A stretch of DNA of 64,000 bases from Promethearchaeota archaeon (GTDB taxonomy: Archaea; Asgardarchaeota; Lokiarchaeia; Sigyniarchaeales; SOKP01): NCBI GenBank assembly GCA_016839555.1, contig JAEOUA010000008.1, forward strand, positions 192,001 to 256,000. The letters are read 5' to 3'. This document shows, piece after piece, positions 33,029 through 51,561 of this stretch; within the stretch, counting starts at the first letter, position 1; each line of letters opens with the position of its first letter. Under the pieces are notes generated by a model, which worked only from the letters and a program-made list of their open reading frames with translations, was not told the DNA's origin and searched no databases. A program made the translations under genes and the position numbers.

Positions 33029-33828
33029 ATGAGTAAAGAAAAAATCAAAAAGGAAAAAAAAATAGATTTTTTGAAATTAGTTGACAATATTTCCTACAAT
33101 AATAAAAAGGTAATTGATAAAAAAAACAGTTTTCAGAAAATTGGATGGAATACTCCCGTTAAAGCAGAAGGCAACCCTCAAGACATAGTAAATGAAATAG
33201 TCAATTTAATAGAAAGTAATTACAATAAATTTGGAACTTGGGGAAATGCATTTGATTATATATTAGATTTAATTCTCTATACACTTACAAATCAAGAAGA
33301 AAAATATCTTTCTGTCGCTAAAGAAATTAATAAAGACGCAATTCTGGTAATCCCCAAAATTTTCGGTCTTCTTTTAGATGCTTTCTGCAATAAGTATTTA
33401 ATCTATGACTATTTAGGTCAAGTGTATATGAGAATAGCATATAAAAGCAAACAAGAATATTTTGGGCAGTATTTTACTCCATTCAATCTTGCAACTCTAT
33501 TGGCTACCATATTAATTCCAGATCCAAAGAAAGTGATTGAAGACGCAATAATAAGAGGAAAGAAAATCATGTTAAACGAGCCTGCAATGGGCTCGGGAGT
33601 GCTTTTTCTAGCCATTAAAAAAATTGTCATTGAAACTATCGGATTAGCGGGGCTGGATAATTTTCAGTTCATCGGGCAAGACATAGACGGGGTTACGTGA
33701 AAATGGCAAAACTCCAAATGATTATGACGGATTATCGCTATATGGCTAACTTTCTATTGGTAAGATATTCAGAAATTAGAAAAATGATTAGAAGATTACA
33801 TAAAAATCCTAATGGGATCAACAGATAA
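33029..33828 (+). pseudogene. N-6 adenine DNA methyltransferase-like gene, frameshifted
   Basis: DYLGQVYM, GQYFTP, EPAMGSG, GQDID; the frame shifts near 33698 into KMAKLQM; no NPPY motif. Confidence 0.75.
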
Positions 33829-34079: not shown

Positions 34080-34613
34080 ATGTCGATTAATGTTGGATTA
34101 ACCCATATTCAGAAAGTTTTATTGTTTTTATTAGCAAACAAAAGTAAGACCAGAATAATTCATTTTCAAGACATACAAGAACATTTAAATAGATCAAAAA
34201 GCCAAGTATCATTACTCTTAACAAGAATGGAAGAAGAAAATCTTATAAACCGATCCTATGTACGACCTCAACCTATTGGGATAACTGATCACGGAGAAGA
34301 AAGAATTAGGAATGAATGTATTGCAATTTTTAGATCTTATTTGTTTTCTCCTAATAAGAAAAAAGCAAAATCTAAAAAAGATCAGGAGAAGAACATTCTT
34401 AAACTAAAAAAGCAAAAAATTTTACAAATGTTAAACCTTGCTACAATTCAAAAATTTTTAGAAAAAATGGAAGAAATGATTAATACAGAATTTGGAGATA
34501 TCGATGATTATGTTATGAAGGCTAAATTAAATGAATTAAAAAATACTCTAATTGATAAAATTGATTTTTTACTAAGCGAGTTGTTTAAAAGAATTAAGCA
34601 AAAAATAAAGTAA
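34080..34613 (+). CDS. MarR-like winged-helix regulator
   Basis: LTHIQ..LL..IQEHLNRSKSQVSLLLTRMEEENLI.R..ITDHG. Confidence 0.75.
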   Translation: MSINVGLTHIQKVLLFLLANKSKTRIIHFQDIQEHLNRSKSQVSLLLTRMEEENLINRSYVRPQPIGITDHGEERIRNECIAIFRSYLFSPNKKKAKSKKDQEKNILKLKKQKILQMLNLATIQKFLEKMEEMINTEFGDIDDYVMKAKLNELKNTLIDKIDFLLSELFKRIKQKIK

Positions 34614-35766: not shown

Positions 35767-36402
35767 TTAAGAGAGATTAGATTTAATTAATGAGAGAGCT
35801 TTATTTACTCGGTGTTTAATTTCATCAAAATTTTTGGTTGAAATCAATTCTTTTTTAACAATCCAGCTTCCTCCACATGCAAAAACATTTTTTAATTTAA
35901 GGTATTTTAACAAGCTTTCATTATTAATACCACCAGTAGGCATGAATTTTGCTTTCGGATATGGACCAGAAAGTATTTTTAACATTTTTGTACCTCCAGA
36001 TATGTCTGCAGGATAAAATTTAAAATGTGTCAAACCTTTTTCTAACCCCCATTCGATAAATGTAGGAATATTTAAACCGGGAATGATAGGAATTCTATTT
36101 TCAACACAATAATTAATTATAGTAGGATTAAAACCCGGAGTAACAATAAACATAGATCCCGCATTCATTGCTGCTTTAACCTGTTCGATTTTTAGTACTG
36201 TTCCAGCTCCAATAACCATCTCTGGAAAATTTTTTTTAATTAATGATATACATCTAGCTGCAACATCAGTTCTAAATGTAATTTCAATGATTGGCAGATT
36301 TACGTCTAAAAGAGTCTTTGCCAATGGAATAGCATTGTCAATATTTTCTATAACAACCACAGGAACTAATCTTAGTTCTTCAAACTTTTTATAAATTTCC
36401 AT
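35767..36402 (-). CDS. eda: KDPG/KHG aldolase
   Basis: IEITFRT, GAGTVL, FIVTPG, FKFYPA, FMPTGGI, GGSW. Confidence 0.92.
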   Translation of the reverse strand: MEIYKKFEELRLVPVVVIENIDNAIPLAKTLLDVNLPIIEITFRTDVAARCISLIKKNFPEMVIGAGTVLKIEQVKAAMNAGSMFIVTPGFNPTIINYCVENRIPIIPGLNIPTFIEWGLEKGLTHFKFYPADISGGTKMLKILSGPYPKAKFMPTGGINNESLLKYLKLKNVFACGGSWIVKKELISTKNFDEIKHRVNKALSLIKSNLS

Positions 36403-36487
36403 TTTTCTTAATAATTTGAACTTCTAATTTGATTTATAATATTTTTTTATTAATTGTAATTATATTTTAAATTCTTAATACCAGTTC

Positions 36488-38308
36488 TCAGATTTTATAT
36501 TTTTCTATCTGATAACATAAATTTACCATAGGTACTATAATTTGAAAATCGAGTATGTTCTGATTCTTTAAGAACTCTAATTCTTTTTCATCAACAGTGT
36601 TATAAGCAAACATCCCAAAATGATGAACAATTAGTAATTTAATACTAGTTTTCTTACATAAATCAAGTACTTCAGAGATTTTAAAATTTCCTGGGATACC
36701 ATGTTTTAGCCGATATTCATCTCTACCATTAATTGGAAGAAGAGCAATATCAACCTTATAGGATTTGATTTTATCATCAAGTCCACTATAGAAAATGCAA
36801 TCACCCGAATGATACATATTAATATCTCCAAATCTAAAAATATATCCTAAAAATGAATGTTCTCCTTTTTCATTTATTTTAAACTCCTCATGGGCAGCAG
36901 GAATGGGAAAAACTTTTATATAATCGTTTAATGTAATTCCCTGGTACACATTCGCTCCGATTATTTGCCCTTTTTTTATACCCCTTTTTACTGCTTCTTC
37001 AATTTCAGCCTTAGGAACAATAAATTTACACTCTGGATTATAATTTGAAATAAAACTTAGAGTTTCTGGGTCTAAATGATCTGTATGAGGATGAGTACTA
37101 AATACAAAATCAACATTTCTTACTTTTTCGGGAGATATCGGAGGATCCATAAGTCTTATATGAGGAAAAATAGTCCCTTTATATTTTTTAGACAAGTAAT
37201 CTGATAAATATGGATCGATGATAATATTCTTTCCTCTATATTTAATAATAAATCCTGCTTGTCCGAGCCATGTTAGTTGAATTTCATTTATATTATTATT
37301 TTCGTTTGTAAGAAAGGATTCTATAGAATTTATTTTTTTTATATGTAATGCAATTTGCTTTTGTCTAAAAAATTTTATAATGTTATTAACGGCAGTTTTG
37401 GCGGCTCTATTAATACTCTCAATTGTATATCCTCCAATATGAGGTGTTATTATTGTGTTTTTGTGTTTAAGTAAATCATCTAATTGAGGAGGTTCATTAT
37501 CGTATACATCAGTTGCATAGATTCTTATTTTTCCAGAATTTAATCCTTCTAAAATTTCATTTTTATCAACAACTTTTGCTCTAGCAGTATTAATAAGAAT
37601 TATACCCTCTTTCATTTGATTTATAGCTGATTTATCAATTAAGGGTTTATCAGTGGGAGGACAATGGAGGGTAATAATATCACTTTCTTTAAAAAGTACT
37701 TGTAAGGAAGTAAAATTAAAAGAAGGTAATGGATTTAAGTTTTTATCAGGATTGATATCATAGGCAAGAACTTTCATACCTAAAGAAAATGCCATCTTAC
37801 AGACCCTTTTTCCGATATTTCCAATTCCAATTACTCCTAAAGTTTTATTAGCAATCTCCATACCTTTAACACGAGACCAAATTCCCTTTTTAAGTTGATT
37901 ATTACAAAAAGGAATAGATCGAACTGAACTGAAGATCAAAGCCATAGTGAGTTCAGCAACTCCTTGCGCATTTGATTCTGGTGCAATTTTAATTTTAATT
38001 CCTAACTCATTTGCTGCATTTAAATCGATATTATCAATCCCGACTCCATTTCGGCTAATAATTTTTAGATTTTTTGACTTTTCAAGAACTTTTTTTGATA
38101 TTGGTTCAATTCCCGCAAGATAAGCTTCACATTGAGGTAATATTCTAAGTTGATCTTCTTCCGTAGGTTGAACACCTGGATTGGCAAATATGAGTTCGAA
38201 TCCCTCCTTTTCAAGCTTTTCCAAAGAGGGATGACCATTTTTAGTTATTGATCTTGGAGTAATATAAACTTTTTTCATATTATCATTTACCAATTTTAGG
38301 ATTTCCAC
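36488..38308 (-). CDS. Fusion: D-isomer 2-hydroxyacid dehydrogenase (SerA-like) plus MBL-fold hydrolase (UlaG-like)
   Basis: SRNGVGIDNID, GIGNIG, INTAR, TPHIGG; then WLGQAG, IDPYLS, THPHTDHLD, HSGD, HHFGMF. Confidence 0.85.
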   Translation of the reverse strand: MEILKLVNDNMKKVYITPRSITKNGHPSLEKLEKEGFELIFANPGVQPTEEDQLRILPQCEAYLAGIEPISKKVLEKSKNLKIISRNGVGIDNIDLNAANELGIKIKIAPESNAQGVAELTMALIFSSVRSIPFCNNQLKKGIWSRVKGMEIANKTLGVIGIGNIGKRVCKMAFSLGMKVLAYDINPDKNLNPLPSFNFTSLQVLFKESDIITLHCPPTDKPLIDKSAINQMKEGIILINTARAKVVDKNEILEGLNSGKIRIYATDVYDNEPPQLDDLLKHKNTIITPHIGGYTIESINRAAKTAVNNIIKFFRQKQIALHIKKINSIESFLTNENNNINEIQLTWLGQAGFIIKYRGKNIIIDPYLSDYLSKKYKGTIFPHIRLMDPPISPEKVRNVDFVFSTHPHTDHLDPETLSFISNYNPECKFIVPKAEIEEAVKRGIKKGQIIGANVYQGITLNDYIKVFPIPAAHEEFKINEKGEHSFLGYIFRFGDINMYHSGDCIFYSGLDDKIKSYKVDIALLPINGRDEYRLKHGIPGNFKISEVLDLCKKTSIKLLIVHHFGMFAYNTVDEKELEFLKNQNILDFQIIVPMVNLCYQIEKYKI

Positions 38309-38895
38309 TTAGGATTATCTATTAATGTAGGTTTATCATTCTGTTCTATCATTAATTTTCTAAAACCTTTCTTTTCTATAGTTTTGTAATCATGACCCGC
38401 ATCAGCCCTAAAACTAAAGAATAGAATTAATGGCTGATCTGGTGATATGTTTATACTTCTATGAGCAAATCTTGGTGGAACATATACAGAAATTCCGGGT
38501 TTCATTTCTCTTACTTCTACATCTCCTTCTGGATTTTCCATTAATAAATAACCATAACCTCTAAGGCAATAATATATTTCTGCTGTTTCTATTTTCTCAT
38601 GGAAATGCCCTTTTGTCATAAAATATTCTGCACCAACCTTTCCGGGATATACTATAGTTGTTCCATAAGCTAACTCTGAGGGATCTGCTTTAATACCCAA
38701 ATCATAAAATTCATAAACAATCAGATCCCTTCTTTTAACAATTTCTTTTAGTTTATTATTATCAAAATACATACCTTCCATATCCGAAAGCATCCGTTTT
38801 TTTGATTCAATTTCCGGAGAAATTCCAGTCTCCAAATTAAATTTAATCACTTTAGATTTTAGCTCATTATTCTTTCTCTTCATCTTTATTTGCAA
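38296..38895 (-). CDS. Cupin-type glucose-6-phosphate isomerase family
   Basis: PGKVG.EYFMTKGHFH, E.YY, HRSIN, AGHDY. Confidence 0.9.
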   Translation of the reverse strand: MQIKMKRKNNELKSKVIKFNLETGISPEIESKKRMLSDMEGMYFDNNKLKEIVKRRDLIVYEFYDLGIKADPSELAYGTTIVYPGKVGAEYFMTKGHFHEKIETAEIYYCLRGYGYLLMENPEGDVEVREMKPGISVYVPPRFAHRSINISPDQPLILFFSFRADAGHDYKTIEKKGFRKLMIEQNDKPTLIDNPKWKS

Positions 38896-38902
38896 ACACT
38901 TT

Positions 38903-39850
38903 TTATTTTGCTTCTATAGCTATATTAGAAATTTTTTCAAATTCTGGACCACTTGTTGGAATTTTTATATGGAAAACTTCAGCAATAACCCTCGTCCAAC
39001 CATATAGAAAATAGGTCCAACCATTTTCTACATGAAGCTCTTTTTCTTTTTGTTGGGCTCTTGCTTGATCTAAAAATACCAGATCTCCTCTATAATTATA
39101 ATCCCAAGCAAAACCTTTTTTTGGAAATTCTGCATTATTTGTAATGGGGGATCCTGGAGAATCCTTACCTAAACCCGTTCCATTAATAATTAATGATCCT
39201 TCTTTAAGTTGATTTACAATTGCATCATTATCTTCCGAATTAGGATTATGAAAATATTCCATATTTATACCTGTATTTATTTGCTCATGAATTATTTTCA
39301 TTTTTTCTAATCTTGGGGTGCTTCTATTTGCTATATAAAGTTTTGAGGGTTTATTATCGGATTCGAGTTCTTGCATAATGTATGCTGTTAATGCCAATGA
39401 TGCGCCCCCCGCTCCTATAATAAATATTTCTGCATTAGTTTTTTTCCAATGATTCTTAGGAATAAAAGACTCAAAGGCTAATCCAGCAGTGATAGGATCT
39501 TTAGCATGCCCCCATAATTCTCCATTTCTCTTGGAGATACAGCTTACCTCACCTAAAAGTTTTGTATAATATCCCACACTATCGAAGTAATCCTTTGCTG
39601 CTTCATAGAGATCGATTTTATGTGAGGTCACTAGTGCACCTAAAGAATTTTTGTCCTTCTTTATAAATTTTACAACTTTTCTATATTTTTCTGGTTGGTC
39701 ATGAATTTTATAGTTAATTCCTATAAATGATTTAGATATTCCAAAATATTCTGCCCATTTTGGATACACACGCATAATTGAGGATTGATGAGTTGAAACT
39801 CCGATATAATAAAATGTAGGAACTTTTCTTGGTGTAAAGTCAAAATTCAA
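38903..39850 (-). CDS. Shikimate dehydrogenase-like NAD(P)-dependent oxidoreductase
   Basis: VTSHK, GAGGA, NRS, INGTGLG, ENGW; divergent from AroE. Confidence 0.75.
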   Translation of the reverse strand: MNFDFTPRKVPTFYYIGVSTHQSSIMRVYPKWAEYFGISKSFIGINYKIHDQPEKYRKVVKFIKKDKNSLGALVTSHKIDLYEAAKDYFDSVGYYTKLLGEVSCISKRNGELWGHAKDPITAGLAFESFIPKNHWKKTNAEIFIIGAGGASLALTAYIMQELESDNKPSKLYIANRSTPRLEKMKIIHEQINTGINMEYFHNPNSEDNDAIVNQLKEGSLIINGTGLGKDSPGSPITNNAEFPKKGFAWDYNYRGDLVFLDQARAQQKEKELHVENGWTYFLYGWTRVIAEVFHIKIPTSGPEFEKISNIAIEAK

Positions 39851-40030
39851 TACCTATCATCTATAGTCAATTTTATTAGTTTTATGTTAATATATGTTAA
39901 AATTTATTAACATTTATAAACATTAAATACTTAAAATAAAAATTATTAATTTGTTCTAATTAAAAATAAAATAGAAAAATATAATTATAATTCTATAAAT
40001 CCAATAAAAATTAAAGTTCCTTTCTTAATA

Positions 40031-41527
40031 ATGGTTATTTTAACTATTGATCTTGGGACCCAAAGTATTAAGGCAGGATTAGTGGATTATGATGGGACTA
40101 TTTTACAAATAAGCCAAGAACCGCAACAAGTGAATCTTCCCAAAAAAGGCTGGGCTCAACAGAAACCTGAATTGTGGTGGAGATTAACTAAAAGTGTAAT
40201 TAAAAATGTTCTCCAAAAATCATCTATAAAAAAAAATGAGATAAATGGCATAAGTACATGTGGTCAAATGCATGGTCCAGTTGGGATTGATAAAAAGGGT
40301 AATATTACGACGGAATGGACTCAAATTTGGATGGATAAACGCTCTAAAAGCATTTGTGAGGAAATAAGAAATCACTACGACCAATCGCAATTGGCACAAA
40401 TTACAGGAAATCCAATAACAACTGGGTGGTCTGGAGTAAAAGTTAGATGGATAAAAGAGAATCAACCAAATATTTACAATAAAACTAAATGGTTTCTTGT
40501 ACCAAAAGACTTCATTAATTTCAAATTATCTGGTGTTATAGCAACAGATCCAAGTGAAGCATCAGGAAGTTATTTATTTGATATAAAAAAAGAGAATTAT
40601 TCCACAGAAATGGGAACAATTCTTGATATTGACATTCAAAAATTTGCAAAAATATATAAATCATATGATATAATTGGAAGTCTTAAAGAAGACATTGCGA
40701 GAGAGATTGGATTACCAAGTAAGATACCAATAATAGCTGGGGGAGGAGATTTTATTGTTTCATTATTAGGGATAGGAATGATTGAGGAGGGGACAGCTGT
40801 TGATATGAGTGGTACTAGTACTTTATTCGTTGTAAAAAAAGACAACCCTATTATTCATCCATTAGTTCAGAATTTAAAGCATGTTATTAGTGGTTGGACT
40901 CCTTTTACAATGTTAGATTGTGGAGGGTTAAGTATTGCTTGGTATAAAGATTTTATTAATTCAATGAAAGAAGAAAAAATATCATATGAAGAAATGATTG
41001 CGATGGCTGAAAAGATACCAATTGGTTCTAATGGATTATTATTTTATCCCTATTTACTTGGAGAAAGACGAACCGAAAATATATATGCAAAAGGAGCATT
41101 TTTTGGAGTCACTTTAACTCATAAAGTTTCACATTTTATAAGAGCAATAATAGAGGGAGTTGCTTTAGCAGTAGGGAAAGATGTAGAAATATTTAGAAAG
41201 TTAGGGGTTAAAATTAAACAAGTTTATTGTCTGGGGGGAGCCACGCGAAATAAATTACTCTATGAAATAAAAGCAAATATTATGCAACTACCTCAAATTT
41301 TGACCAATGAACCAGAAGCAAGTTTACGTGGAAATGGAATATTAGCAGCATATGGCTTAGGATTAATTAATAATATAAAACAAATTGCAAACCCAAGAAC
41401 TCTTAAAATAGAGATAATCAAACCGGATAAAATTTTAGCTAACAAATATCTATTCTTGTTAAAAAAATTTAAAAAAATGTATAAACACATGTTAGGATAC
41501 GAAAATGAAGATGTTCATTATATCTAG
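40031..41527 (+). CDS. FGGY-family carbohydrate kinase (xylulokinase-like)
   Basis: IDLGTQSIK, GQMHG, W.D.R, TD.SEASG, GGGD, PYLLGER, RAIIEGV. Confidence 0.92.
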   Translation: MVILTIDLGTQSIKAGLVDYDGTILQISQEPQQVNLPKKGWAQQKPELWWRLTKSVIKNVLQKSSIKKNEINGISTCGQMHGPVGIDKKGNITTEWTQIWMDKRSKSICEEIRNHYDQSQLAQITGNPITTGWSGVKVRWIKENQPNIYNKTKWFLVPKDFINFKLSGVIATDPSEASGSYLFDIKKENYSTEMGTILDIDIQKFAKIYKSYDIIGSLKEDIAREIGLPSKIPIIAGGGDFIVSLLGIGMIEEGTAVDMSGTSTLFVVKKDNPIIHPLVQNLKHVISGWTPFTMLDCGGLSIAWYKDFINSMKEEKISYEEMIAMAEKIPIGSNGLLFYPYLLGERRTENIYAKGAFFGVTLTHKVSHFIRAIIEGVALAVGKDVEIFRKLGVKIKQVYCLGGATRNKLLYEIKANIMQLPQILTNEPEASLRGNGILAAYGLGLINNIKQIANPRTLKIEIIKPDKILANKYLFLLKKFKKMYKHMLGYENEDVHYI

Positions 41528-41753
41528 ACTGAAGAAAAGTGGTGTATTTTAATTTACAAAATTATCTTCAAATCGAATTAGTTAAGAGAAATAATAATAC
41601 ATAAATTAAAATTAAATCCAAATTATCAAGTAAGATTTTGAAAAAGAAATATAAAAATACCAATGATTCTTTTTAAAAATGTTTATTATTTGTTATTGAA
41701 AAGAATTCTATATAATTTACATCATTTTAATGAAAAATATATAATTCTTAACA

Positions 41754-44339
41754 TTATCGATGTTCTGTTCTAGAAATGACTTCATCTTGTATTTCTTTTC
41801 CCAAGTCTGTAAAATATGCACTATATCCTCCGACTTTAACTATAATATCTCTATATTTTTCTGGATCTTTTTGAGCTGCCCTTAATGTTTTTGTTGAGAC
41901 TACAGTAGGTTGTAGTTGTTCGCCACCTAATTTAAAATAAGTTTTTATTAATGAAATCCATTTTTTCTTCGCTTCTTCAGTTTTTCCAATTCCAGAGGGA
42001 TGCATTCGAATATTTACAGCACACCCACATACATGTTTGTAGTCAAGTGCAGCAACAGATCGAAGAACTCCAGTTGGACCGTGTTCTTCTACATTATAGG
42101 GATTACAACTTGCAGCAAAAGGTTTTCCTGCCAATCTGCCATCGGGTGTCGCTAGTGATATCCTTCCATCGTAAGTATGGGAGGTCATACTAATAATAAA
42201 TGGTGCAAAAACGCCACCCTTATATGTTTTATACTTATAAGTTTCTTCAAATATATGATTTGTTACTTTTTTGGCTAATTCATCACACTCAGGATTTCCA
42301 TTCCCCCATTTTCCTTTTAAATCCATAATTAGAGAATGAATCCATTCATAACCTTGAGTAAAGTTATTATCAACCGCATCAACAAGCTCTCTTAATGTAA
42401 ATTTTTTTTCTTCGAAAACTAATTTTTTAATAACATATAAAGAATCAACCAAATTAGCTACACTGTTTAAAATTAATATTCCTTCAGCGTCATATTTAGC
42501 TCCTCCTTTTGTAACATCCTTTTTATTTTTTAAACAACCCTGTACAAAAGCTGATAAAAAGGGCGCAGGTAAATATTCAGCATATATTTGGTCTCGAATT
42601 TTTGTTGCTTCGACTATATGTTGGATAACATAATCTGATTGCTTATAGAAAGCTTCAAGGAAATCTTCAAATGTTCTAAATGTGTCTGGTTTACCCGTCT
42701 TAGGACCAATATTTTTCATCAATCCTACTAATGCCTTAGAATCGCCATTTCGAAGGGCTGTATCAAGTGTATGACTTAATAAAATTGCTGAAAAACTAAT
42801 TCCACCTGTTTTTCCAGGAGGGGACATATCTACACAACCAGTAATGCAATAACCTTGCGCATCTTTTTTAGTAATTCCCCGATTCATTAATGCTTTTATA
42901 GCAATATCATCATTTAACATAGAGAGGCTTGATATTCCATTATAACTAAGGTCAGCAACCTTTAAATATAATTCTTCTGGTGATTTATCGTGAAATCTTA
43001 CTGCAAAATTAAGGCAGGTTTTTGACCGGGCAGCTACTTCTAACATTATATAGGTTAGTTCATTTGTAGCATCTTCACCAGTTTCTGTAAGACCGCCTAA
43101 AGTAATTGGTTCGGAGCCTTCATATCTCTGGCTAAATTCTGAGACAGAATCTGAATAAGGACGAACATTATGGCTCATTACCTTTAATACTAATTCTTCC
43201 AGCAATTCTATGGCTTCTTCTCGAGCAATTCTTACTTCTTCAATATCGCGCTTATAATATGGATATAAAAATTGATCGAGACGTCCTGGCCCATGTACAT
43301 TAAATGGAAGTGCCAAATCAACAGAAGTTTTAATTATCCAATATAATTGTACTGCTTCTCGGAATGTTTTAGCCGGCTTTGTTTTTACATTATTACATAT
43401 TTTATACATTTTTGTTAATATAGCCTTTCTCTTAGATTCATTAGTATTGTTAATTTCTTCTTGAAGGTTTTTAGTAAGCCTGTTAGCAAATATCATTATC
43501 CCCTCAAGAGCAATATCAAGAGATTTTAAAAAATCTATTTGTTCTTTTGTTAAATTATCATCTTTCTCAATTTCCTCTCGAACCTCCTTTTGCATGTTTA
43601 ATAATCCTTTTTTAATTGCAGTCTCATGGTCAAGGATTATATGCCCTTGCCATCCACCAATAACAGCATTACTTGAAATTATTGGTTGATCTTGGGATTT
43701 TTTTATTGGTACATGATTAATAAAGTCATAAAAATCCCCTTTATAAATGTTATTTTCTAAAAGCTTTTTCTCAATTAAATCAGAAATATTCTTTCCTTTC
43801 CAATATGGGATTAATTTTTTTAGAAGTAATTCCTTATCCTCTTCTTTTATTTTAAATCCATTTATTTTTCTCTGTTCTAAAGAGTCAGATCCCATAGTTG
43901 GTATAGCAGCACCCATTTTTTTAGTATTTGCTATAAATTCAATAATATTTATTCCCTTATTACTCATATATTCTATAAAAGATTTGTTAAATTCCCTTTC
44001 AAATTTCTTCATTGCTTTTTCGTCAATTTCATATTCAAGTACTCTGTTCCATATACCACGCTCTAAATCTAGAGGTATTCCAAGGAAACTTTCTGTCCAT
44101 TTACCTGCAATACGATCATCTGGATCTATGTAGATCTGCATGTTTTCGTAAACATTTTTCATAGATAAGGCAATTCTGACGCCAACTGATAAATTACTTT
44201 TTTCAGTCTCAGACCACTTTTCAGTATAATATTTCGCTCTTTCTAGTGAAATTAGAGTCTTATCATCAAGAAACCTTCTACGAATGCGTTTTATTCTTTC
44301 ATTTTCCTTATTAATGATTTGGATATTTTGATCACTCAT
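41754..44339 (-). CDS. Glycyl radical enzyme (PFL-like family, unknown substrate)
   Basis: GRLDQFLYPYY, Cys loop TGCVD, KWGN, ATPDGR, Gly loop VKVGGYSAYF, QDEVISRT. Confidence 0.93.
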   Translation of the reverse strand: MSDQNIQIINKENERIKRIRRRFLDDKTLISLERAKYYTEKWSETEKSNLSVGVRIALSMKNVYENMQIYIDPDDRIAGKWTESFLGIPLDLERGIWNRVLEYEIDEKAMKKFEREFNKSFIEYMSNKGINIIEFIANTKKMGAAIPTMGSDSLEQRKINGFKIKEEDKELLLKKLIPYWKGKNISDLIEKKLLENNIYKGDFYDFINHVPIKKSQDQPIISSNAVIGGWQGHIILDHETAIKKGLLNMQKEVREEIEKDDNLTKEQIDFLKSLDIALEGIMIFANRLTKNLQEEINNTNESKRKAILTKMYKICNNVKTKPAKTFREAVQLYWIIKTSVDLALPFNVHGPGRLDQFLYPYYKRDIEEVRIAREEAIELLEELVLKVMSHNVRPYSDSVSEFSQRYEGSEPITLGGLTETGEDATNELTYIMLEVAARSKTCLNFAVRFHDKSPEELYLKVADLSYNGISSLSMLNDDIAIKALMNRGITKKDAQGYCITGCVDMSPPGKTGGISFSAILLSHTLDTALRNGDSKALVGLMKNIGPKTGKPDTFRTFEDFLEAFYKQSDYVIQHIVEATKIRDQIYAEYLPAPFLSAFVQGCLKNKKDVTKGGAKYDAEGILILNSVANLVDSLYVIKKLVFEEKKFTLRELVDAVDNNFTQGYEWIHSLIMDLKGKWGNGNPECDELAKKVTNHIFEETYKYKTYKGGVFAPFIISMTSHTYDGRISLATPDGRLAGKPFAASCNPYNVEEHGPTGVLRSVAALDYKHVCGCAVNIRMHPSGIGKTEEAKKKWISLIKTYFKLGGEQLQPTVVSTKTLRAAQKDPEKYRDIIVKVGGYSAYFTDLGKEIQDEVISRTEHR

Positions 44340-44499
44340 AGTAATTTTATAAATATATAAAATTTGTATATTATTATTTTACTAAATTATATTATATTAG
44401 TATTATTTATAAATATTGTTAACATTTATTAATGATTGTAAACATTTTTTAATTAATAATAAATTCCCCAATTTTTATATTAAAATCTAATTTGAAAAT

Positions 44500-45408
44500 A
44501 TGAAGGGCATTATTTTTGATATTCAACATTATGCAATTTTTGATGGACCGGGAATAAGAACATTAGTTTTTTTGAAAGGGTGTCCTTTATGTTGCAAATG
44601 GTGTCATAATCCTGAATCTCAGTTACTAAAACCACAATTATCATATTTTCAAGAAAAGTGTGAATTATGTGGGAAATGTGTTAAAAGTTGTGATAAAAAT
44701 GCTCTCAAAATATTTGAAGATGCCGTTATTTGGGATAAAGATTTATGTGATATGTGTGGAAAATGTGTTGAAACGTGTCCTAATAATGTCCTTGAAATTA
44801 TCGGAGAAAAAAAAGAAGTTAAGGAGATAGTAGAAGTTGTATCAAGAGATAAGATTTTCTATGAAGACTCTGGAGGGGGTGTAACAATCACAGGTGGAGA
44901 ACCTACAATGCAATTACCATTTTTATTAGAATTATTAACTAATTTTAAAAAAAAAGGAATTCAGACAGCTATAGAAACATGTGGATATTTTAATGAGAAT
45001 ATTATAGAAAATTTAACACATTTGGTGGATCTCTTTTTATTTGATATTAAACTTATTGATCCAGAAAAACATATCAAATATACTGGTGTATCAAATAAGA
45101 AAATTTTAAAAAATTTTAAAAAAATCTATGAAAAAGTGGGATCCAAAAGAATTATATGCCGAATACCTTTAATTCCAGGAATAAATACAAATACAAAAGA
45201 TATAGACCAGATTATTACATTTTTAAAGGATATAGATTATAAAGGGGCTGTTCATCTTATGCCTTATAATAAAATGGCGAAAACTAAATATGAAAAAATA
45301 GGCAGAAGTCAAGACTATATAGATTTTGGGGACTTGAAAGAAAAGAAAATAGAAATAATTATTGAAGAAATAGAAAAAGAATCTTATGAAGTAATTTGTA
45401 ATGAATAA
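44500..45408 (+). CDS. Glycyl-radical enzyme activating enzyme (radical SAM with ferredoxin insert)
   Basis: DGPGIRT.VFLKGCPLCCKWCHNPES, two CxxCxxCxxxC, TGGEP. Confidence 0.95.
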   Translation: MKGIIFDIQHYAIFDGPGIRTLVFLKGCPLCCKWCHNPESQLLKPQLSYFQEKCELCGKCVKSCDKNALKIFEDAVIWDKDLCDMCGKCVETCPNNVLEIIGEKKEVKEIVEVVSRDKIFYEDSGGGVTITGGEPTMQLPFLLELLTNFKKKGIQTAIETCGYFNENIIENLTHLVDLFLFDIKLIDPEKHIKYTGVSNKKILKNFKKIYEKVGSKRIICRIPLIPGINTNTKDIDQIITFLKDIDYKGAVHLMPYNKMAKTKYEKIGRSQDYIDFGDLKEKKIEIIIEEIEKESYEVICNE

Positions 45409-45440
45409 TAAGTATTATAAATATTGAATGAGGAACAGAA

Positions 45441-46847
45441 ATGGAAACAAAACAATTTGAAAAAAAGCTTGATACAAAATCAACAAACTTTATGATTTCC
45501 TATAGCTTTGGGCAATTGTCGGACGTCATTGGCTATCAAATGTTTACTTTTCTTATATTCACTTTTTATTATGCTATTATTGGCTTAAACGTGAATTGGA
45601 TTACAATAGGATTTATTATTTGGAGTGTTTGGAATGCTTTTAACGATCCAATGGTGGGTTATATTTCTGATCGATTGAACACAAAATGGGGGAGAAGAAA
45701 ACCACTTGTATATGTTGGAATTATTCCGTTATTAACTTTAATGGTATTATTATGGACACCTCCCTTGAATAGCAAAATTATTTCATTCATTTATTTTATT
45801 ATAATTATCTTAGCATTTGATACAGCTTATACATCATTTTCTATGGGTCAAGCGACTTTGTTTCCTGAGCTATTTAAAAACTTAGAGGAGAGGGCAAAAG
45901 CGAATAATATTCGACAAATTTTTACTATATTTGGATTAATTATTGCATTCATAATGCCAACTTTTTTCATACCTAAGTTGACAAATCCTCAATATATTGG
46001 AGGATATATATTAGCAGGAATCGTTGCTATGATCTTAATGGGCTTCTTTGGCATCATTTTTATCATATTTGGGTTAAAAGAACCTAAAGAATTTTCTGAA
46101 GACTATAAAGATACACCACCTTTTTTCACTTCTTTAAAAATATCATTAAAAAGAAAATCATTTAAATGGTACGTATTAGTTCATTTTGTAAACTGGTATG
46201 TTTATGGAATGTTGCCGACAATATTACCATTATTCGCAGAATATGTTTTAGGCATAGGAGAAGGGGAAACATTTTATATAGGTCTTTTACTTGGAGTCAC
46301 TTTTATTTCAGCATGTATTTTCATAGCTCTCTGGAAATACGTAGCAATTAAAATTGGTATAAGGAAAGGTTTTATGATTTCTATGCTTATATTCATAATC
46401 ACATTGTTCCCCAATTTATTCATAAATAATGTGATTCAGGGATTTATTGTATTCTTTTTAATTGGAATAGGATTAGCAGGATCTTTATTTTTCTTAGATA
46501 TTACAATCGCTGCGGTTATGGATGAAGATGAACTTGAGACAGGAGTACGTAGAGCGGGAGGAATCTATGGTATTAGCACATTTATATTAAGATTTGCTAC
46601 AATATTTATGTTTTTAACAATCAGCCTTGTATTCAATAGCACTGGATGGACTGTCTTTGATCCTATAGGAACAGTAAACACGCAATTAGGCTTAAGGATT
46701 TTGATTTTTGTATTTCCCGCTATAGCCCTCATTATAGGAATTCTTGGAATGTACAAATTTCCTATCACAGTAGAAAAATATACCGAAATGAAAAAAGAAC
46801 TTAGAAAATTACATGAACATAAACTTGAAAAAATCAGAAACACATAA
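45441..46847 (+). CDS. GPH/MelB-type MFS sugar transporter
   Basis: WNAFNDPMVGYISDR.NTKWGRRKP, DEDELETGVRRAG, about 12 TM. Confidence 0.9.
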   Translation: METKQFEKKLDTKSTNFMISYSFGQLSDVIGYQMFTFLIFTFYYAIIGLNVNWITIGFIIWSVWNAFNDPMVGYISDRLNTKWGRRKPLVYVGIIPLLTLMVLLWTPPLNSKIISFIYFIIIILAFDTAYTSFSMGQATLFPELFKNLEERAKANNIRQIFTIFGLIIAFIMPTFFIPKLTNPQYIGGYILAGIVAMILMGFFGIIFIIFGLKEPKEFSEDYKDTPPFFTSLKISLKRKSFKWYVLVHFVNWYVYGMLPTILPLFAEYVLGIGEGETFYIGLLLGVTFISACIFIALWKYVAIKIGIRKGFMISMLIFIITLFPNLFINNVIQGFIVFFLIGIGLAGSLFFLDITIAAVMDEDELETGVRRAGGIYGISTFILRFATIFMFLTISLVFNSTGWTVFDPIGTVNTQLGLRILIFVFPAIALIIGILGMYKFPITVEKYTEMKKELRKLHEHKLEKIRNT

Positions 46848-47045
46848 TAATGTAATTTAAGAATAATATTCAAAGGAATAATTGAAAATTTTAATTTAAC
46901 TAAAATTTTATTTTCATTTATTAATTATATTGAAAAAGAATTTTTAATGAGCTTTTAATAATATAATAATAAAAAAAAAAGGATTAATAACCAAATATTT
47001 TGAAAAACTTTATTTATAAATAAATTAAATATCGGATAATGGAAT

Positions 47046-47819
47046 ATGCTTGCAACGGAAAGAAGAAATCAAATAGCTAAACTAGTAAAAACTGAAGGGT
47101 CTATAACTATTGAGGATTTAACAAATATGTTCGATGTATCAAGAATAACAATCTGGAAAGACCTTAAAATGCTTGAAGAGCGTGGATTTCTCGCAAGAGT
47201 ACATGGAGGGGCTATGAGATTAGATAAATTAAATCCAGAAGAACAGGAATTTCCTATACGCAAACAGAGTTCATCTTTAGAAAAAAAGAAAATAGCTCAA
47301 TATGCTGCTAAAAATTACGTAGAAGATAACCAGATACTTTTTTTAGATGGAGGGACCACTGTCGTAGAGATGATACCATATCTAAATAAGAAGAATCTAA
47401 CCATATTGACTAATGGGTTTTTTACCTTGATAAAAGCAGCAAATTACTTGTCTGATATAAATTTCATAAGTCTTGGAGGAATTTTTAGAAAACCCTCTTA
47501 TACTTTTGTTGGCCCAGATACAGAAGATTTTATTTCACGTTATAAAATTGATACCGCATTTGTAAGTGCCTATGGAATCTCACTTAAAGATGGACTGATG
47601 GATCCTAACCCACTCGATATGGAAATCAAAAAAATTATGTGTGAAAATGCTAATAAAATTTTTGTCTTAATAGATTCTAGTAAATATGAGAAACATTCAT
47701 TGACTACTTTTCTAAATCTGGAAGAAATTGATCATTTGATAACAGATAACGGAGCTCCCGCTAAATTTTTGGAAGAATTAAAAAATCGTGGTATTGCTAT
47801 TGATATAGTAAAAATATAG
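47046..47819 (+). CDS. DeoR/GlpR family transcriptional regulator
   Basis: ERR..I, FDVSRITIWKDL, RVHGGA, FLDGGTT, DSSK, LITD. Confidence 0.93.
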   Translation: MLATERRNQIAKLVKTEGSITIEDLTNMFDVSRITIWKDLKMLEERGFLARVHGGAMRLDKLNPEEQEFPIRKQSSSLEKKKIAQYAAKNYVEDNQILFLDGGTTVVEMIPYLNKKNLTILTNGFFTLIKAANYLSDINFISLGGIFRKPSYTFVGPDTEDFISRYKIDTAFVSAYGISLKDGLMDPNPLDMEIKKIMCENANKIFVLIDSSKYEKHSLTTFLNLEEIDHLITDNGAPAKFLEELKNRGIAIDIVKI

Positions 47820-47980: not shown

Positions 47981-49120
47981 ATGGTGAATTATGTTTACAA
48001 AGAATATAAAACGGCATTAAACAAATTAAAGTTTCCAGACAGCTACTTTTGGTGTCGCTATACTCTTAATCCATATGTGGGATGCCAACATGCATGCGTT
48101 TACTGTGATGCTCGGAGTAAACGATATTATTTAGAAAATGTTGAGGAGGATGTAATAATTAAAGTAGGAATAGCGGAGAAATTAGAAAAAAAAATAAAAA
48201 ATTCAAGAACATTATTACCAGATGTTATAGGACCTGGGGGAGTTTGTGATGCGTACCAACCAATAGAAAAAAAAGTAAAAAATACACGAAAAATTTTAAA
48301 AGTCTTGAGAAAATATAAATTCCCTGTGAATATTGCTACAAAATCCGATTTAATTGTTAGAGATATCGATATTTTAAAAGAAATTGCAAAAGATACGTGG
48401 TGTACAGTAGGATTTTCCATAACCACTACAGATGGAGAATTAGCAAATTTTTTAGAACCGTATTCCTCTCCTCCAGATAAAAGATTCAATGCAATGAAGG
48501 AAATTAAGAATAATGCTCCAAATATACAGACAGGAACTTATTTTATGCCAATAATTCCATTTCTGGAAGATAATGATAAGAATTTAGATGATGTTATTAA
48601 AAAAACAAAAGAAAAAGTAGGCGATTTTGTTGTATTCGCACCGGGCTTAACTTTAAGAGATAATCAGAAAGAATATTTTATAAATAAGCTGAAAAATAGT
48701 AAATATAGAGACATAGTAGAACCCTTATTAAATCTTTATAGTGAAGGATATGATTCTGAACAAATGAACAGCTATATTTTAACTCAATATAAAAAATTAT
48801 TAAATTTATGCAAGAAATATAATTTGAATATACGAGAAAAACGATGGATTCCTTCAGATTATAGAAAATGGAATTATTTAATAGCAGAAAAGTTATTGAA
48901 TGAAGAATATTTGAATACAATTCAGGGAAAGCCAAATGATAGAATAAAATGGGCTGGCTTATATCTCAATAATCTTAAAGAATCCATCATTGATGTATAT
49001 AGAAGAGGAAAATTACATAATCTTAGAAATTTTAATTCGAAAATAATTGAATTTGTACAACCTTATTTAGAAAAAGGATTAGAAGAACAGAAAAAGAAAA
49101 GTTTGGATAGGTTCTTATGA
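47981..49120 (+). CDS. SplB/Rv2578c-like radical SAM protein
   Basis: NPYVGCQHACVYC, DAYQPIE, TKS.LI.RD.D. Confidence 0.85.
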   Translation: MVNYVYKEYKTALNKLKFPDSYFWCRYTLNPYVGCQHACVYCDARSKRYYLENVEEDVIIKVGIAEKLEKKIKNSRTLLPDVIGPGGVCDAYQPIEKKVKNTRKILKVLRKYKFPVNIATKSDLIVRDIDILKEIAKDTWCTVGFSITTTDGELANFLEPYSSPPDKRFNAMKEIKNNAPNIQTGTYFMPIIPFLEDNDKNLDDVIKKTKEKVGDFVVFAPGLTLRDNQKEYFINKLKNSKYRDIVEPLLNLYSEGYDSEQMNSYILTQYKKLLNLCKKYNLNIREKRWIPSDYRKWNYLIAEKLLNEEYLNTIQGKPNDRIKWAGLYLNNLKESIIDVYRRGKLHNLRNFNSKIIEFVQPYLEKGLEEQKKKSLDRFL

Positions 49121-49869
49121 ATAAAAATATCGATCAAATGATCAACAATATTAAAGGTAAATTGAAACAAACAGCTCCAGATTTAACTAAAGATCAAATT
49201 GAAAAAAGAAATAAAATTTTAAAATCTGAGGACCCTAAATTCTTTGGTTATGGTCATAAAATAGGTGAACTCGAAAAAATAGTACAGCAAATTGAAAATC
49301 AAACGGAATGCTCATATGAAGCGGCACTTGAAGTATTTAAAAATCTTATGAGTTCCCATATTCATGAAGAAAAATTTGCTGGATTCTTATTTATTAATCG
49401 TTTTAAAAGAGATTTTAACAAGGATTTAATCAAAATATTTAAAGAAGTAATCTCGAAATATTGCGATTCCTGGGCTTTATGCGATAGTTCTATGATTAAG
49501 GTTTTGGGTCCATATTTAGCTAAAAGAGGCAAAGAACAACTAGCAATAAGCACAATTAAATCATGGGCGAACTCGGACCTTTTATGGATAAGACGTGGTT
49601 CATTGGTTATTTATTTGAAAGCAATAATGATAAAAAAGGACTTCGATTATAACTTTCTAGTAAAACTAATAAAGCCATTAATAAATGATTCAGAACCATA
49701 TATACAAAAGGCAATTGCATGGCTTCTTAGGACATGCTCTCGCTATAAGCCAAAAATAATTTTTAGTTATTTATTGGAAAATAAAGAAAATTTTTCAAGA
49801 TCATTTTTAAGAGAAGCTGCTCAAAAGCTTTCAGATGCACAAAGAGAGATTATAATAGGAAAAAAGTGA
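49117..49869 (+). CDS. AlkD-like DNA alkylation repair protein (HEAT repeat)
   Basis: DSWALCD, WIRR, YIQKAIAWLLR, LREA; ATGA overlap with the radical SAM gene. Confidence 0.85.
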   Translation: MNKNIDQMINNIKGKLKQTAPDLTKDQIEKRNKILKSEDPKFFGYGHKIGELEKIVQQIENQTECSYEAALEVFKNLMSSHIHEEKFAGFLFINRFKRDFNKDLIKIFKEVISKYCDSWALCDSSMIKVLGPYLAKRGKEQLAISTIKSWANSDLLWIRRGSLVIYLKAIMIKKDFDYNFLVKLIKPLINDSEPYIQKAIAWLLRTCSRYKPKIIFSYLLENKENFSRSFLREAAQKLSDAQREIIIGKK

Positions 49870-49953: not shown

Positions 49954-51561
49954 ATGCAATCTAAAAAACCCAATATTGTACTTATTCTCGCTGATGATAT
50001 GGGATTTTCTGATATCAGATGCTACGGTGGAGAAATCTCTACACCAAATCTTGATAATTTGGCTGAAGGTGGTATTAGATTCACTCAATTTTTTAATACT
50101 GCCCGATGTTCTCCCTCGAGAGCTTCCCTCTTAACTGGGTTACATCCACATCAAACAGGCATAGGTATATTAGTTGATGATTATAGCCCAGAAGGTTATG
50201 CAGGAGATCTTAATAATAATTGTATTACTATTGCTGAAATTTTAAAAGAAAATGGCTATAAAACTTATATGAGCGGTAAATGGCATGTATCTACTAGTAA
50301 ATTTGAAGTTCGTGATTCATGGCCAAATCAACGGGGATTTGATCATTTTTATGGAACTATTGTAGGAGCAGGGAGCTATTATTATCCTATTAGTCTTACA
50401 CGTGATAATAAGAATATTGAGCAAGAAACTCTAAATAAAGACTTTTATTATACTGATGCTATCACCAATAATGCTGTGAAATATATTAATCAACATTATA
50501 AGAGTACTCCTAACACTCCCTTTTTCTTATATGTGAGCTATACTGCCCCACATTGGCCACTGCATGCAAAGAAGGAGGTTATCGAAAAATATAAAGGGCG
50601 CTTTAAAGATGGATGGGATACTCTAAGGAAAGAGCGGCTCGAGCGTCAAGTAGATATGAATATAATTAATGAAAAATGGAAGTTATCAGATAGAGATCCA
50701 AGAGCCTCCCCTTGGAAAGATGTGAGGCATAAAGATTGGGAACAGAGGAGAATGGAAGTGTATGCCGCCCAAGTTGACATTATGGATAAAGGAATAGGTA
50801 AAATAGTAGATACTCTTAAAGAAAATAAATTATTAGAAGATACTTTAATAATATTTCTGTCTGATAATGGTGGATGCGCCGAACCTCTCGGAACGGTTAT
50901 GGAAAAGATAGCATTAGCAGATGCTTCGACAAGAAAATATACCCGTTCTGGAGAAAGAGTTAATTTTGGGAATAAACACTCTGTTATGCCCGGAGGAGAA
51001 AATACGTACCAAAGTTATGGCGCTGCTTGGGCTAATCTCTCTAATACCCCTTTTCGCAAATTTAAGAAATGGACTCATGAGGGAGGAATCGCTACTCCCT
51101 TTATACTTCATTGGCCTAAATCAATTAAACATAAGGGCGAAATAAGACATCAGCAAGCTCAATTAACCGATATAATGGCAACCATAGTAGATATTACGGG
51201 TATTGAATATCCTAAAAAGTTTAAGGGAAGAACTATACTTCCATTGGAAGGAACTAGCTTAGTGCCCATTTTTAATAACAAAGATAATAATAAAGGGATG
51301 CTGTTTTTTGAACATGAGGGAAATGCTGCTGTACGTGATGGGAATTGGAAGCTCGTCAGAGATTATCCCGAAGATTGGGAATTATATAATATGGAAGAGG
51401 ATAGGACAGAATTAAATAGTTTAATTGATCAATATCCCAATCGGGCTTTGAAGATGAAAAAAACTTATGAAGAATGGGCTAAACGCTGTGGAGTTATACC
51501 CCGAGAAAAGATGTTGGAAATTCAAAAAAAAAGATTTAGAAAATTATATAGCAAATATTAA
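49954..51561 (+). CDS. Arylsulfatase (Cys-type)
   Basis: PNIVLILADDMG, CSPSRASLLTG, GKWH, APHWP, SDNG, EGGI. Confidence 0.95.
   Translation: MQSKKPNIVLILADDMGFSDIRCYGGEISTPNLDNLAEGGIRFTQFFNTARCSPSRASLLTGLHPHQTGIGILVDDYSPEGYAGDLNNNCITIAEILKENGYKTYMSGKWHVSTSKFEVRDSWPNQRGFDHFYGTIVGAGSYYYPISLTRDNKNIEQETLNKDFYYTDAITNNAVKYINQHYKSTPNTPFFLYVSYTAPHWPLHAKKEVIEKYKGRFKDGWDTLRKERLERQVDMNIINEKWKLSDRDPRASPWKDVRHKDWEQRRMEVYAAQVDIMDKGIGKIVDTLKENKLLEDTLIIFLSDNGGCAEPLGTVMEKIALADASTRKYTRSGERVNFGNKHSVMPGGENTYQSYGAAWANLSNTPFRKFKKWTHEGGIATPFILHWPKSIKHKGEIRHQQAQLTDIMATIVDITGIEYPKKFKGRTILPLEGTSLVPIFNNKDNNKGMLFFEHEGNAAVRDGNWKLVRDYPEDWELYNMEEDRTELNSLIDQYPNRALKMKKTYEEWAKRCGVIPREKMLEIQKKRFRKLYSKY

Follow-up and report, generated by a model that had tools for sequence, protein, structure and literature searches.

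A discrete glycyl radical enzyme family with aspartate at the eliminase glutamate position, in sugar-type operons of Asgard archaea and anaerobic bacteria

The stretch of DNA analyzed here, hereafter the window, is 64,000 nucleotides long and comes from a Promethearchaeota archaeon (GenBank assembly GCA_016839555.1, contig JAEOUA010000008.1, positions 192,001 to 256,000 of the forward strand). It carries a gene cluster built around a glycyl radical enzyme (GRE). We listed the open reading frames (ORFs) of the window and scanned them with Pfam and NCBIfam, and all nine genes that a sequence-only reading of this DNA had named were found at the positions and in the families it had given (Table 1). 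The GRE and its activase lie head-to-head, as that reading had it, on divergent strands with 160 bp between them. The cluster consists of divergent units rather than one operon, and its 2-hydroxyacid dehydrogenase (2HADH) and metallo-β-lactamase-fold (MBL) hydrolase are fused. The window is AT-rich (G+C 27–34%), and a tRNA scan of its 30–53 kb region found none. The genome (3.74 Mb, 12 contigs, 92% complete) encodes five GREs, the other four being 29–35% identical to the one in the window. The GRE cluster is real, intact and uncharacterized; in the literature we found neither a description of a GRE family with its two signature motifs, C-x-D and KVGGYS, nor a link of a GRE to 2-keto-3-deoxy-6-phosphogluconate (KDPG) aldolase, DeoC, FGGY kinases or alditols.

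Table 1. Genes and candidate regulatory sites of the GRE cluster, in window coordinates.
Feature	Position	Strand	Evidence
KDPG/KHG aldolase (Eda family)	35767-36402	-	PF01081 219 bits; NF004325 255 (cut-off 241); TIGR01182 239 (cut-off 156)
2-Hydroxyacid dehydrogenase + UlaG-like MBL hydrolase/lactonase, one 606-aa frame	36488-38308	-	Pfam 2-Hacid_dh_C/2-Hacid_dh + Lactamase_B_2/3
Cupin-type phosphoglucose isomerase (PGI) homologue	38296-38895	-	PF06560 121 bits
Divergent shikimate dehydrogenase-family NAD(P) oxidoreductase (SDH-like)	38903-39850	-	weak NCBIfam shikimate dehydrogenase matches
FGGY sugar kinase, xylulokinase-like	40031-41527	+	FGGY_N + FGGY_C
Glycyl radical enzyme (GRE), 861 aa	41754-44339	-	PF02901 511 bits + PF01228 80 bits
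GRE-activating radical SAM enzyme	44500-45408	+	TIGR02494 340 bits (cut-off 174)
GPH/MFS_2 cation:sugar symporter	45441-46847	+	PF13347 200 bits
DeoR-family repressor	47046-47819	+	HTH_DeoR + DeoRC
Candidate operator TTAACATTTATWAA (AT-rich 14-mer), divergent SDH-like/FGGY intergenic region	39887-39920	.	three copies, at most 1 mismatch
Candidate operator, exact copy, divergent GRE/activase intergenic region	44419-44432	.	

The enzyme has the pyruvate formate-lyase (PFL)-like barrel and the C-terminal glycine-radical domain of the GRE superfamily. Its translation contains CITGCVDMSPPGKTGG, with the Cys loop ITGCVDM, and IIVKVGGYSAYF, with the Gly loop VKVGGYS. Both loops are recognizable as those of the superfamily, the Gly loop having Lys for Arg and Gly for Ala/Ser relative to the RVxG[FWY] type. 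The key residues are Cys502-Val-Asp504 (codons 42828-42836), Gly838 in KVGGYS (codon 41826-41828) and His233. GCVD and KVGGYS, the two loops picked out in the sequence-only reading, are kept as C-(V/T)-D and KVGGYS in 121 out of 121 homologues of at least 55% identity, and Cys502 is invariant in a 150-sequence alignment. The enzyme is not a pyruvate formate-lyase: it has a single Cys (G-C-V-D) and scores 119 bits with TIGR01255, for which the cut-off is 994. All NCBIfam equivalog cut-offs were missed (470 against 1000 for HpsG, 467 against 1100 for HypD, 428 against 1000 for HpfG, 408 against 1050 for CutC), as was that of the PFL2-3 subfamily model TIGR01774 (507 against 678). The best solved relative by sequence is the B12-independent glycerol dehydratase (GD; 399 bits, ~30% identity), followed by HpsG (373 bits). 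When 1.8 billion representative sequences were searched, two full-length matches scored ~878 bits, after which the score fell to 436 bits for the next full-length GRE (36% identity). Judged by sequence, the window GRE is a member of a discrete family whose identity to other GREs does not exceed 36%, and no curated model or solved structure assigns it, which agrees with the earlier view that it matches no characterized enzyme. Its nearest homologues, 60–95% identical, come from Lokiarchaeota, Promethearchaeota and Hermodarchaeota metagenome-assembled genomes (MAGs), while bacterial homologues from Dehalococcoidia, Desulfobacterales and other anaerobes are ~58% identical. The closest homologue in the phylum search (78% identity; G170:C9:164551-167130) is read through one in-frame TGA, which may reflect a sequencing error, pseudogene formation or recoding.

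A 2026 review of GREs (PMC13450708) describes the roles of the general-acid His164 and of Glu435 in GD, finds CxE kept in every characterized eliminase and isomerase, and mentions no CxD enzyme. This is in line with the sequence-only reading, which had given CxE as the eliminase motif; the Escherichia coli MG1655 enzymes YbiW and PflD read GCIE and GCVE. In the window GRE the corresponding residues are C502-V-D504, with the Asp invariant in the crown clade described below. Pocket residues were mapped by pairwise sequence alignments to GD and HpsG, in which Asp504 aligns with GD Glu435 and His233 (QGH) aligns with GD His164 (GH); an equivalent His is also found in YbiW and PflD. GD residues H281, S282, Y339 and D447 align to N, V, S and F. 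The GD pocket residues are replaced mostly by smaller or aromatic ones, which suggests that the substrate may be larger than that of glycerol dehydratase.

An AlphaFold2 model built from the 150-sequence alignment has the full GRE fold (pLDDT, the predicted local distance difference test score, 94.3; predicted TM score 0.93); an earlier model from an 18-sequence alignment (pLDDT 59) was discarded. The best Foldseek matches of the model were GD (1r8w; TM 0.84/0.92) and 1,2-propanediol dehydratase (5i2g/9rco), with HypD, CutC, PflD and YbiW close behind and TM scores of 0.8–0.85 to ~50 GRE structures. The window GRE shares with GD of Clostridium butyricum (1R8W/1R9D) and propanediol dehydratase of Roseburia inulinivorans (5I2G; 9RCO) the ten-stranded GRE fold, the catalytic Cys, the general-acid His, an acidic residue two after the Cys, and an activase with two extra Fe-S motifs. 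It differs from them in its low identity (~30%), in Asp for Glu, in the KVGGYS loop and in a clade-specific helical insert of ~48 residues (106–152), which is also absent from YbiW and PflD. The settings differ as well: GD and propanediol dehydratase are accompanied by a 1,3-propanediol dehydrogenase or a microcompartment, the window GRE by a sugar kinase, an aldolase and an importer.

We took 78 loci from contigs of one genome per species, called and clustered their ORFs, annotated the recurrent clusters and built a tree. The KVGGYS Gly loop is common to all family members. A basal set (n=20), mostly bacterial with a few Asgard members and 47–52% identical to the window GRE, has the ordinary GCVE and is here called E-type. 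A crown clade (n=63, support 100) has C-(V/T)-D and is called D-type; one more GCVD sequence (L076) falls in the basal set. An MFS_2 transporter, FGGY kinase, Eda or DeoC gene lies within 8 kb of 38 out of 63 D-type members versus 0 out of 20 E-type members, so that the clade proves to be recurrently linked to sugar genes, as the sequence-only reading had supposed. The reverse is seen for genes of acetoacetate decarboxylase-like (ADC) proteins, acyl-CoA dehydrogenases, short-chain dehydrogenases (SDRs), epimerases or uroporphyrinogen decarboxylase (URO-D)-like proteins, found within the same distance of 7/63 D-type and 19/20 E-type members. Thirteen positions separate the two types and switch together with Glu to Asp. 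F346, V348 and P351 sit in the segment aligned to GD H281/S282, E407 adjoins the counterpart of GD Y339, F516 and S517 fall at GD D447 in the alignment, and F714 falls at HpsG R672. As read from the alignment and tree, the Glu to Asp change coincides with the family's move into sugar contexts. The pocket appears rebuilt, yet the acid two residues after the Cys and His233 are kept, which points to chemistry of the same kind acting on a new and probably larger substrate.

The D-type GREs lie in operons of three types. Type A, found in the window and other Asgard genomes, has the order SDH-like, cupin, 2HADH, MBL, Eda, FGGY, GRE, activase, and is a single co-directional, tightly spaced operon in L022, L023, L026 and L047. 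Its enzyme module is joined to GREs from four different Asgard subclades. Type B, also Asgard, has a core of MFS_2, Eda, activase and GRE amid a geranylgeranyl-reductase-like flavoprotein, PIG-L, DUF2804, an M29 peptidase and a class III aminotransferase. Type C has the order TetR, MFS_2, GRE (often two in tandem), activase, iron-dependent alcohol dehydrogenase (Fe-ADH), FGGY, DeoC, and occurs in MAGs of Syntrophaceae, Desulfobacterales, Zymogenaceae, Desulfomonilia, Spirochaetota and Leptospirales. Its DeoC passes the deoxyribose-phosphate aldolase equivalog TIGR00126 (199 bits, cut-off 117). The tandem bacterial GREs (L027:378-5788, L028:9851-15183, L030, L031, L034) belong to two separate old subclades and share one activase; they recall the YbiW/PflD pair, which acts on epimers. 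Between Asgard and bacterial operons the GRE is 58% and the activase 57% identical. Types A and C have orthologous FGGY kinases (52–54% identity, with other FGGY genes at 27%), so GRE, activase and kinase have stayed together across the archaeal–bacterial divide. Homologues of the GPH importer with 64–67% identity adjoin the closest relatives of the window GRE. The Entner-Doudoroff-like aldolase of the sequence-only reading is also upheld, with a route that ends in an Eda-type aldolase and a kinase co-inherited across domains.

The proteins around the GRE add to this picture. Eda keeps the equivalents of E. coli Eda E45, R49 and K133 and the PTGG and GGSW (phosphate) loops, as expected of an aldolase of this family. 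The 2HADH part is closest to archaeal 3-phosphoglycerate dehydrogenases (best PDB match 1wwk, a phosphoglycerate dehydrogenase, 196 bits), and the MBL part resembles the UlaG ascorbate-6-phosphate lactonase in NCBIfam. The two are adjacent genes in L022, L024, L026 and L047 and overlap in most Asgard operons, and the fusion is also present in L109 (L109:11558-13360). The cupin matches the Pyrococcus/Thermococcus cupin PGI structures 1qxj, 1x7n and 1j3p over its full length (193 bits). The SDH-like protein has no Pfam match; its PDB matches, 1nvt and the 5-ketofructose reductase 7cok, are weak, and its Atlas neighbors are labeled 'putative shikimate dehydrogenase' at 0.98. The FGGY kinase falls short of xylulokinase (TIGR01312 XylB, 347 bits against a cut-off of 380; PDB 2itm, 188 bits) and has orthologues of 62–64% identity in Asgard operons. 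The activase carries C28xxxC32xxC35 and two ferredoxin-like CxxCxxCxxxC motifs, as befits a cognate GRE activase, and matches no specific activase equivalog. The transporter scores 138 bits with TIGR00792, under the cut-off, and its best specific match is a glucuronide transporter (70 bits). In the two congeneric genomes (L107, L111) the activase again has the DeoR regulator beside it, conserved at 69–70% identity.

By similarity, the SDH-like, cupin PGI, phosphoglycerate dehydrogenase-like and UlaG-like enzymes all resemble enzymes of phosphorylated sugars, and the module has the appearance of an Entner-Doudoroff-type route that runs on sugar phosphates, without kinase and dehydratase. With the classical and semi-phosphorylative Entner-Doudoroff pathways (Zwf, Pgl, Edd/gluconate dehydratase, KdgK, Eda) it shares an isomerase, NAD(P) dehydrogenases, a lactonase and Eda, and in the window the kinase and dehydratase gaps are filled, by position, by FGGY and the GRE. 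It differs in that the cupin PGI, SDH-like dehydrogenase, MBL lactonase, FGGY and GRE would be non-orthologous replacements. Using the SDH-like gene as a marker, we found the module in 20 out of 400 genomes of the phylum, and the window's own family, with 134 genomes, accounts for 18 of these. In at least 16 of the fetched regions SDH-like, cupin, 2HADH/MBL and Eda occur together, with FGGY adjacent in 11 and a GRE adjacent in 8 plus the window. A D-type GRE is present somewhere in the genome in 17 of the 20 module genomes, compared with 39/400 phylum genomes for the GRE family, these genomes being kin and not independent. Module copies that lack the GRE adjoin GPH importers (47–51% identical to the one in the window) and GH2 glycosidases.

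The two divergent intergenic regions of the cluster share an AT-rich 14-mer, TTAACATTTATWAA (Table 1). With at most 1 mismatch it has 9 matches in the window, against 1.6 expected, and the same 14-mer occurs in the matching SDH-like/FGGY intergenic region of a congeneric genome (L024/L111), which also has the DeoR gene. We tentatively regard it as a candidate DeoR operator.

The flanks of the cluster are of mixed character. A formylglycine-type sulfatase gene (PF00884 + SGSH_C; 49954-51561, + strand) lies 2 kb downstream of the DeoR gene and hints at the use of sulfated glycans; genes for a PA0069-family radical SAM protein and a DNA-alkylation-repair protein (47981-49120, 49117-49869) lie 5' of it. 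Farther on, at 53396-59766, are a GFO/IDH/MocA oxidoreductase, an MFS_1 transporter, a zinc-dependent alcohol dehydrogenase, a xylose-isomerase-like TIM barrel and a creatininase-family protein; a TrmO-like gene interrupts this group. On the other side, 5' of the cluster, a caspase-domain protein (29998-31656, - strand), an N6 DNA methylase fragment (33029-33700, + strand) and a MarR-like gene (34080-34613, + strand) are consistent with the cluster abutting an accessory or defense region.

The E-type GREs have a conserved operon of their own (L054-L078; e.g. L058:938-8723, L071, L073). It encodes TetR, an MtaA/URO-D-like protein with an HMG-CoA-reductase N domain, the GRE, the activase, an NAD-epimerase/3β-hydroxysteroid dehydrogenase, an SDR, an ADC-like protein and an acyl-CoA dehydrogenase. 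This operon is a second orphan GRE pathway, of non-sugar type, in diverse uncultured bacteria and a few Asgard genomes. At the end of the window (60526-63999, - strand) lie genes for a CCG/4Fe-4S protein, a FAD_binding_4 flavoprotein and an ADC-like protein that runs past the window end; the FAD_binding_4 and ADC families also adjoin E-type GREs in the Asgard loci L065, L068 and L070. No E-type GRE of the KVGGYS family was found in the genome of the window.

Taken together, we favor, at a probability of about 0.55, the reading that the GRE is an eliminase-type enzyme cleaving a C-O bond, as a dehydratase or by opening an ether, with Asp as the base and a product that feeds an aldolase. The cluster would then be an anaerobic catabolic route for an imported sugar-derived compound, with the GRE catalyzing the committed and chemically hard step. 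The activase would put the radical on Gly838, from which it would be relayed to Cys502, and the resulting thiyl radical would take a hydrogen atom from an OH-bearing carbon. Asp504, in place of the eliminase/isomerase Glu, would deprotonate that OH, and His233 would protonate the neighboring oxygen, which would leave as water (dehydration) or as the ring ether oxygen (ring opening). With the hydrogen atom returned, the product would be a carbonyl next to a new CH2, a deoxy-carbonyl motif formed by C-O β-scission from a ketyl radical.

The neighboring aldolases fit such a product. GRE diol dehydratases convert -CH(OH)-CH(OH)- to -C(=O)-CH2-, and ring-opening isomerases act likewise on -CH(OH)-CH(OR)-. 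DeoC needs an aldehyde with an α-CH2 and a β-OH, and Eda a 2-keto acid with a 3-CH2 and a 4-OH. Since both need the carbonyl-CH2 motif, the simplest account of both operon types is that the GRE makes it. In the Asgard operons Eda would split a 2-keto-3-deoxy acid phosphate into pyruvate and glyceraldehyde-3-phosphate, and in the bacterial ones DeoC would split 2-deoxyribose-5-phosphate into acetaldehyde and glyceraldehyde-3-phosphate. As both release glyceraldehyde-3-phosphate, a terminal phosphate is needed, and the FGGY kinase would supply it, before or after the GRE step.

With kinase and dehydratase missing from the module, the GRE would most economically be assigned as an aldonate(-6-phosphate) or alditol(-phosphate) 1,2-diol dehydratase. 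Candidate substrates are aldonates or 6-phosphogluconate for Asgard types A and B, giving 2-keto-3-deoxygluconate (KDG) or KDPG, and pentitols or their 5-phosphates for bacterial type C, giving 2-deoxyribose(-5-phosphate); the tandem paralogues of type C would act on C2 epimers, for instance ribitol and D-arabitol. Since 6-phosphogluconate can formally be written as 1-carboxy-D-arabinitol-5-phosphate, both proposals map onto one binding mode. In its most specific form, which we hold tentatively and consider doubtful, the proposal is that C-x-D GREs are radical dehydratases of open-chain sugars, phosphorylated or soon to be, the Asgard enzyme replacing Edd (6-phosphogluconate/gluconate to KDPG/KDG) and the bacterial pairs making 2-deoxyribose(-5-phosphate) from ribitol and D-arabitol.

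Several observations weigh against these assignments. Ordinary dehydratases cope with aldonates, whose C2-H is acidic enough, and this genome also encodes UxuA, a UxaA-like enzyme, two IlvD/Edd-family and two enolase-superfamily dehydratases, so a radical enzyme is not obviously needed for common aldonates. The pathway scheme leaves one dehydrogenase over, and the sequence fits dehydration and ether ring-opening alike. In about half of its genomes the module has no adjacent GRE, and no member of the GRE family was found in G261 and G177, two near-complete genomes with the module; the GRE is thus not strictly required by the module. L001 and L002, which hold the closest GRE homologues (77–78% identity), have no module within 10 kb. 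Many Asgard loci are close kin, so part of the synteny reflects inheritance and is not independent evidence. The idea that the GRE fills in for a missing aldonate dehydratase is weakened by the genome's other dehydratases, and their redundancy favors a substrate without an activated C-H (an alditol or an ether) or a redundant route. The genome also has a second Eda and no DeoC. Two further routes were considered and rejected. Conversion of a hexitol to 3-deoxyfructose would use all module enzymes and bring no energetic gain over ordinary mannitol catabolism, and is kept only as a candidate substrate class. A sulfoquinovose (sulfo-Entner-Doudoroff) route was suggested by the GPH importer, DeoR, lactonase, aldolase and an isomerase acting on a glucose-6-phosphate mimic, but the sulfonate-binding residues are absent and the co-inherited kinase would have no role; according to a sulfoquinovose review, steps of the sulfo-Entner-Doudoroff type use protein families other than those here.

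The alternative that survives best, though we think it unlikely, is that the GRE is a ring-opening isomerase like YbiW and PflD acting on an anhydro-sugar or anhydro-sugar acid. The ring C-O bond would be cleaved without net loss of water, and the freed terminal OH phosphorylated by FGGY before aldol cleavage. Candidate substrates would be a 1,5- or 1,4-anhydro-alditol or 3,6-anhydrogalactonate, which derives from red-algal galactans; 3,6-anhydrogalactonate, however, is opened by ordinary enolase-superfamily enzymes. The pathway logic would be that of E. coli 'anhydroglycolysis', a GRE plus a class I aldolase plus an Fe-ADH-family reductase (PMC13450708), in which YbiW and PflD convert 1,5-anhydroglucitol-6-phosphate and 1,5-anhydromannitol-6-phosphate to 1-deoxyfructose-6-phosphate for FsaA/B and GldA. 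It is the only characterized case of a sugar GRE feeding a class I aldolase, and E. coli ybiW adjoins fsaA. In both systems C-O scission would occur next to a ketyl radical. Tandem bacterial GREs from two old subclades are what is expected where two epimers lead to one product, and YbiW/PflD are such a pair. Ring opening would also explain why a kinase follows rather than a phosphotransferase system (PTS), and the sulfatase downstream and the GH2 glycosidases beside GRE-less modules point to algal or glycoside substrates. Nevertheless, the window GRE is only 29–30% identical to YbiW and PflD, as read from MG1655, lacks the CxE and the close relationship expected of such an isomerase, and is marginally nearer to the diol dehydratases in both sequence and fold. 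Anhydroglycolysis itself differs in that its substrates are phosphorylated by a PTS and not by FGGY, and its aldolases are of the Fsa type, not Eda or DeoC; 1-deoxy-ketose products of the YbiW type would not suit DeoC, Eda or PGI.

We consider it quite unlikely that the GRE acts on a small non-sugar compound, such as a short diol, an amino alcohol or a sulfonate, with the nearby sugar genes reflecting inherited synteny or a side reaction, for example one that disposes of what an aldolase makes. The basal half of the family does lie amid TetR, MtaA-like, SDR, epimerase, ADC-like and acyl-CoA dehydrogenase genes, 25 of the 63 D-type members have no recognizable sugar gene within 8 kb, and the module occurs without the GRE. 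Against this, an orthologous kinase travels with GRE and activase across domains in tight operons, and the exchange of GD pocket residues suggests a larger substrate. The NCBIfam equivalog cut-offs of the CutC, HypD, HpsG, HpfG and IslA types are missed by more than half. With the C-S cleaving GREs (IslA, IseG, HpsG) the window GRE shares the TSH motif that HpsG has in a pocket-lining hairpin, but the sulfonate anchors of HpsG, R183, Q187 and R672 (PMC13450708), align to Gly, His233 and Phe714. Both sulfonate-binding Arg residues of HpsG/IslA are thus replaced, and the enzyme does not qualify as one of this group.

A truly different radical chemistry marked by Asp504, whether C-C cleavage, decarboxylation or isomerization without C-O scission, seems improbable to us. 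No characterized GRE has CxD, the Asp is invariant in at least 60 diverged members with twelve other positions changed together with it, and KVGGYS departs from RVxG[YF]. However, KVGGYS is also found in the GCVE sister group, which makes it a trait of the family and not one tied to the Asp; Glu to Asp is a conservative change, and both neighboring aldolases demand the deoxy-carbonyl product that elimination delivers. The 'new GRE chemistry' of the sequence-only reading does not stand, given that the sister group has GCVE, that GD His164 is conserved as His233, and that the model (pLDDT 94) is closest to the glycerol and 1,2-propanediol dehydratases. The GCVE of the sister group argues that the acid position is functionally retained, and the simplest view of Asp504 is that a remodeled pocket uses the same catalytic base in a shorter form.

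Hydrocarbon activation by an alkyl- or benzylsuccinate synthase is very improbable: single-Cys GREs of Asgard archaea (Hermodarchaeota) were annotated as Ass/Bss on ~30% identity (PMC8163825) and one family member (P0055, L021) comes from a Hermodarchaeota MAG, but benzylsuccinate and methylalkylsuccinate synthases rank near the bottom of the GRE structures that it matches (207 bits; TM 0.80), the activase scores only 220 bits with the BssD equivalog, whose cut-off is 496, the neighbors are a sugar transporter, kinase and aldolase with no β-oxidation genes, and no small-subunit genes of an X-succinate synthase turned up, small ORFs of that kind not having been specifically sought.

GRE eliminases are the fastest-growing class of radical enzymes, and every one studied uses CxE. 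The large, discrete C-x-D family described here, in which Glu became Asp where the family entered sugar-type operons, is hosted by Asgard archaea, the closest known relatives of eukaryotes, and by MAGs of sulfate-reducer type and of spirochaetes. New in this work are the E/D split with its switch of context, the orthologous kinase, the logic of DeoC and Eda, and the analysis of the module. The recurring Eda and DeoC narrow the candidate substrates to a few and allow an inexpensive coupled assay, which turns an orphan GRE into a testable hypothesis. If the favored C-O cleaving reading is true, a radical step would be added to central sugar or polyol catabolism. In the more specific, tentative form of that proposal, Asgard archaea would have an Entner-Doudoroff pathway in which every step but Eda is a non-orthologous replacement, and the bacterial operons would hold a radical route that makes deoxy-sugars independently of a reductant and offers a new means of fermenting sugar alcohols. 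The favored reading would also correct the annotation of Asgard GREs as pyruvate formate-lyases, may bear on their annotation as succinate synthases, and would refine our picture of the diet of Asgard archaea in sediments.

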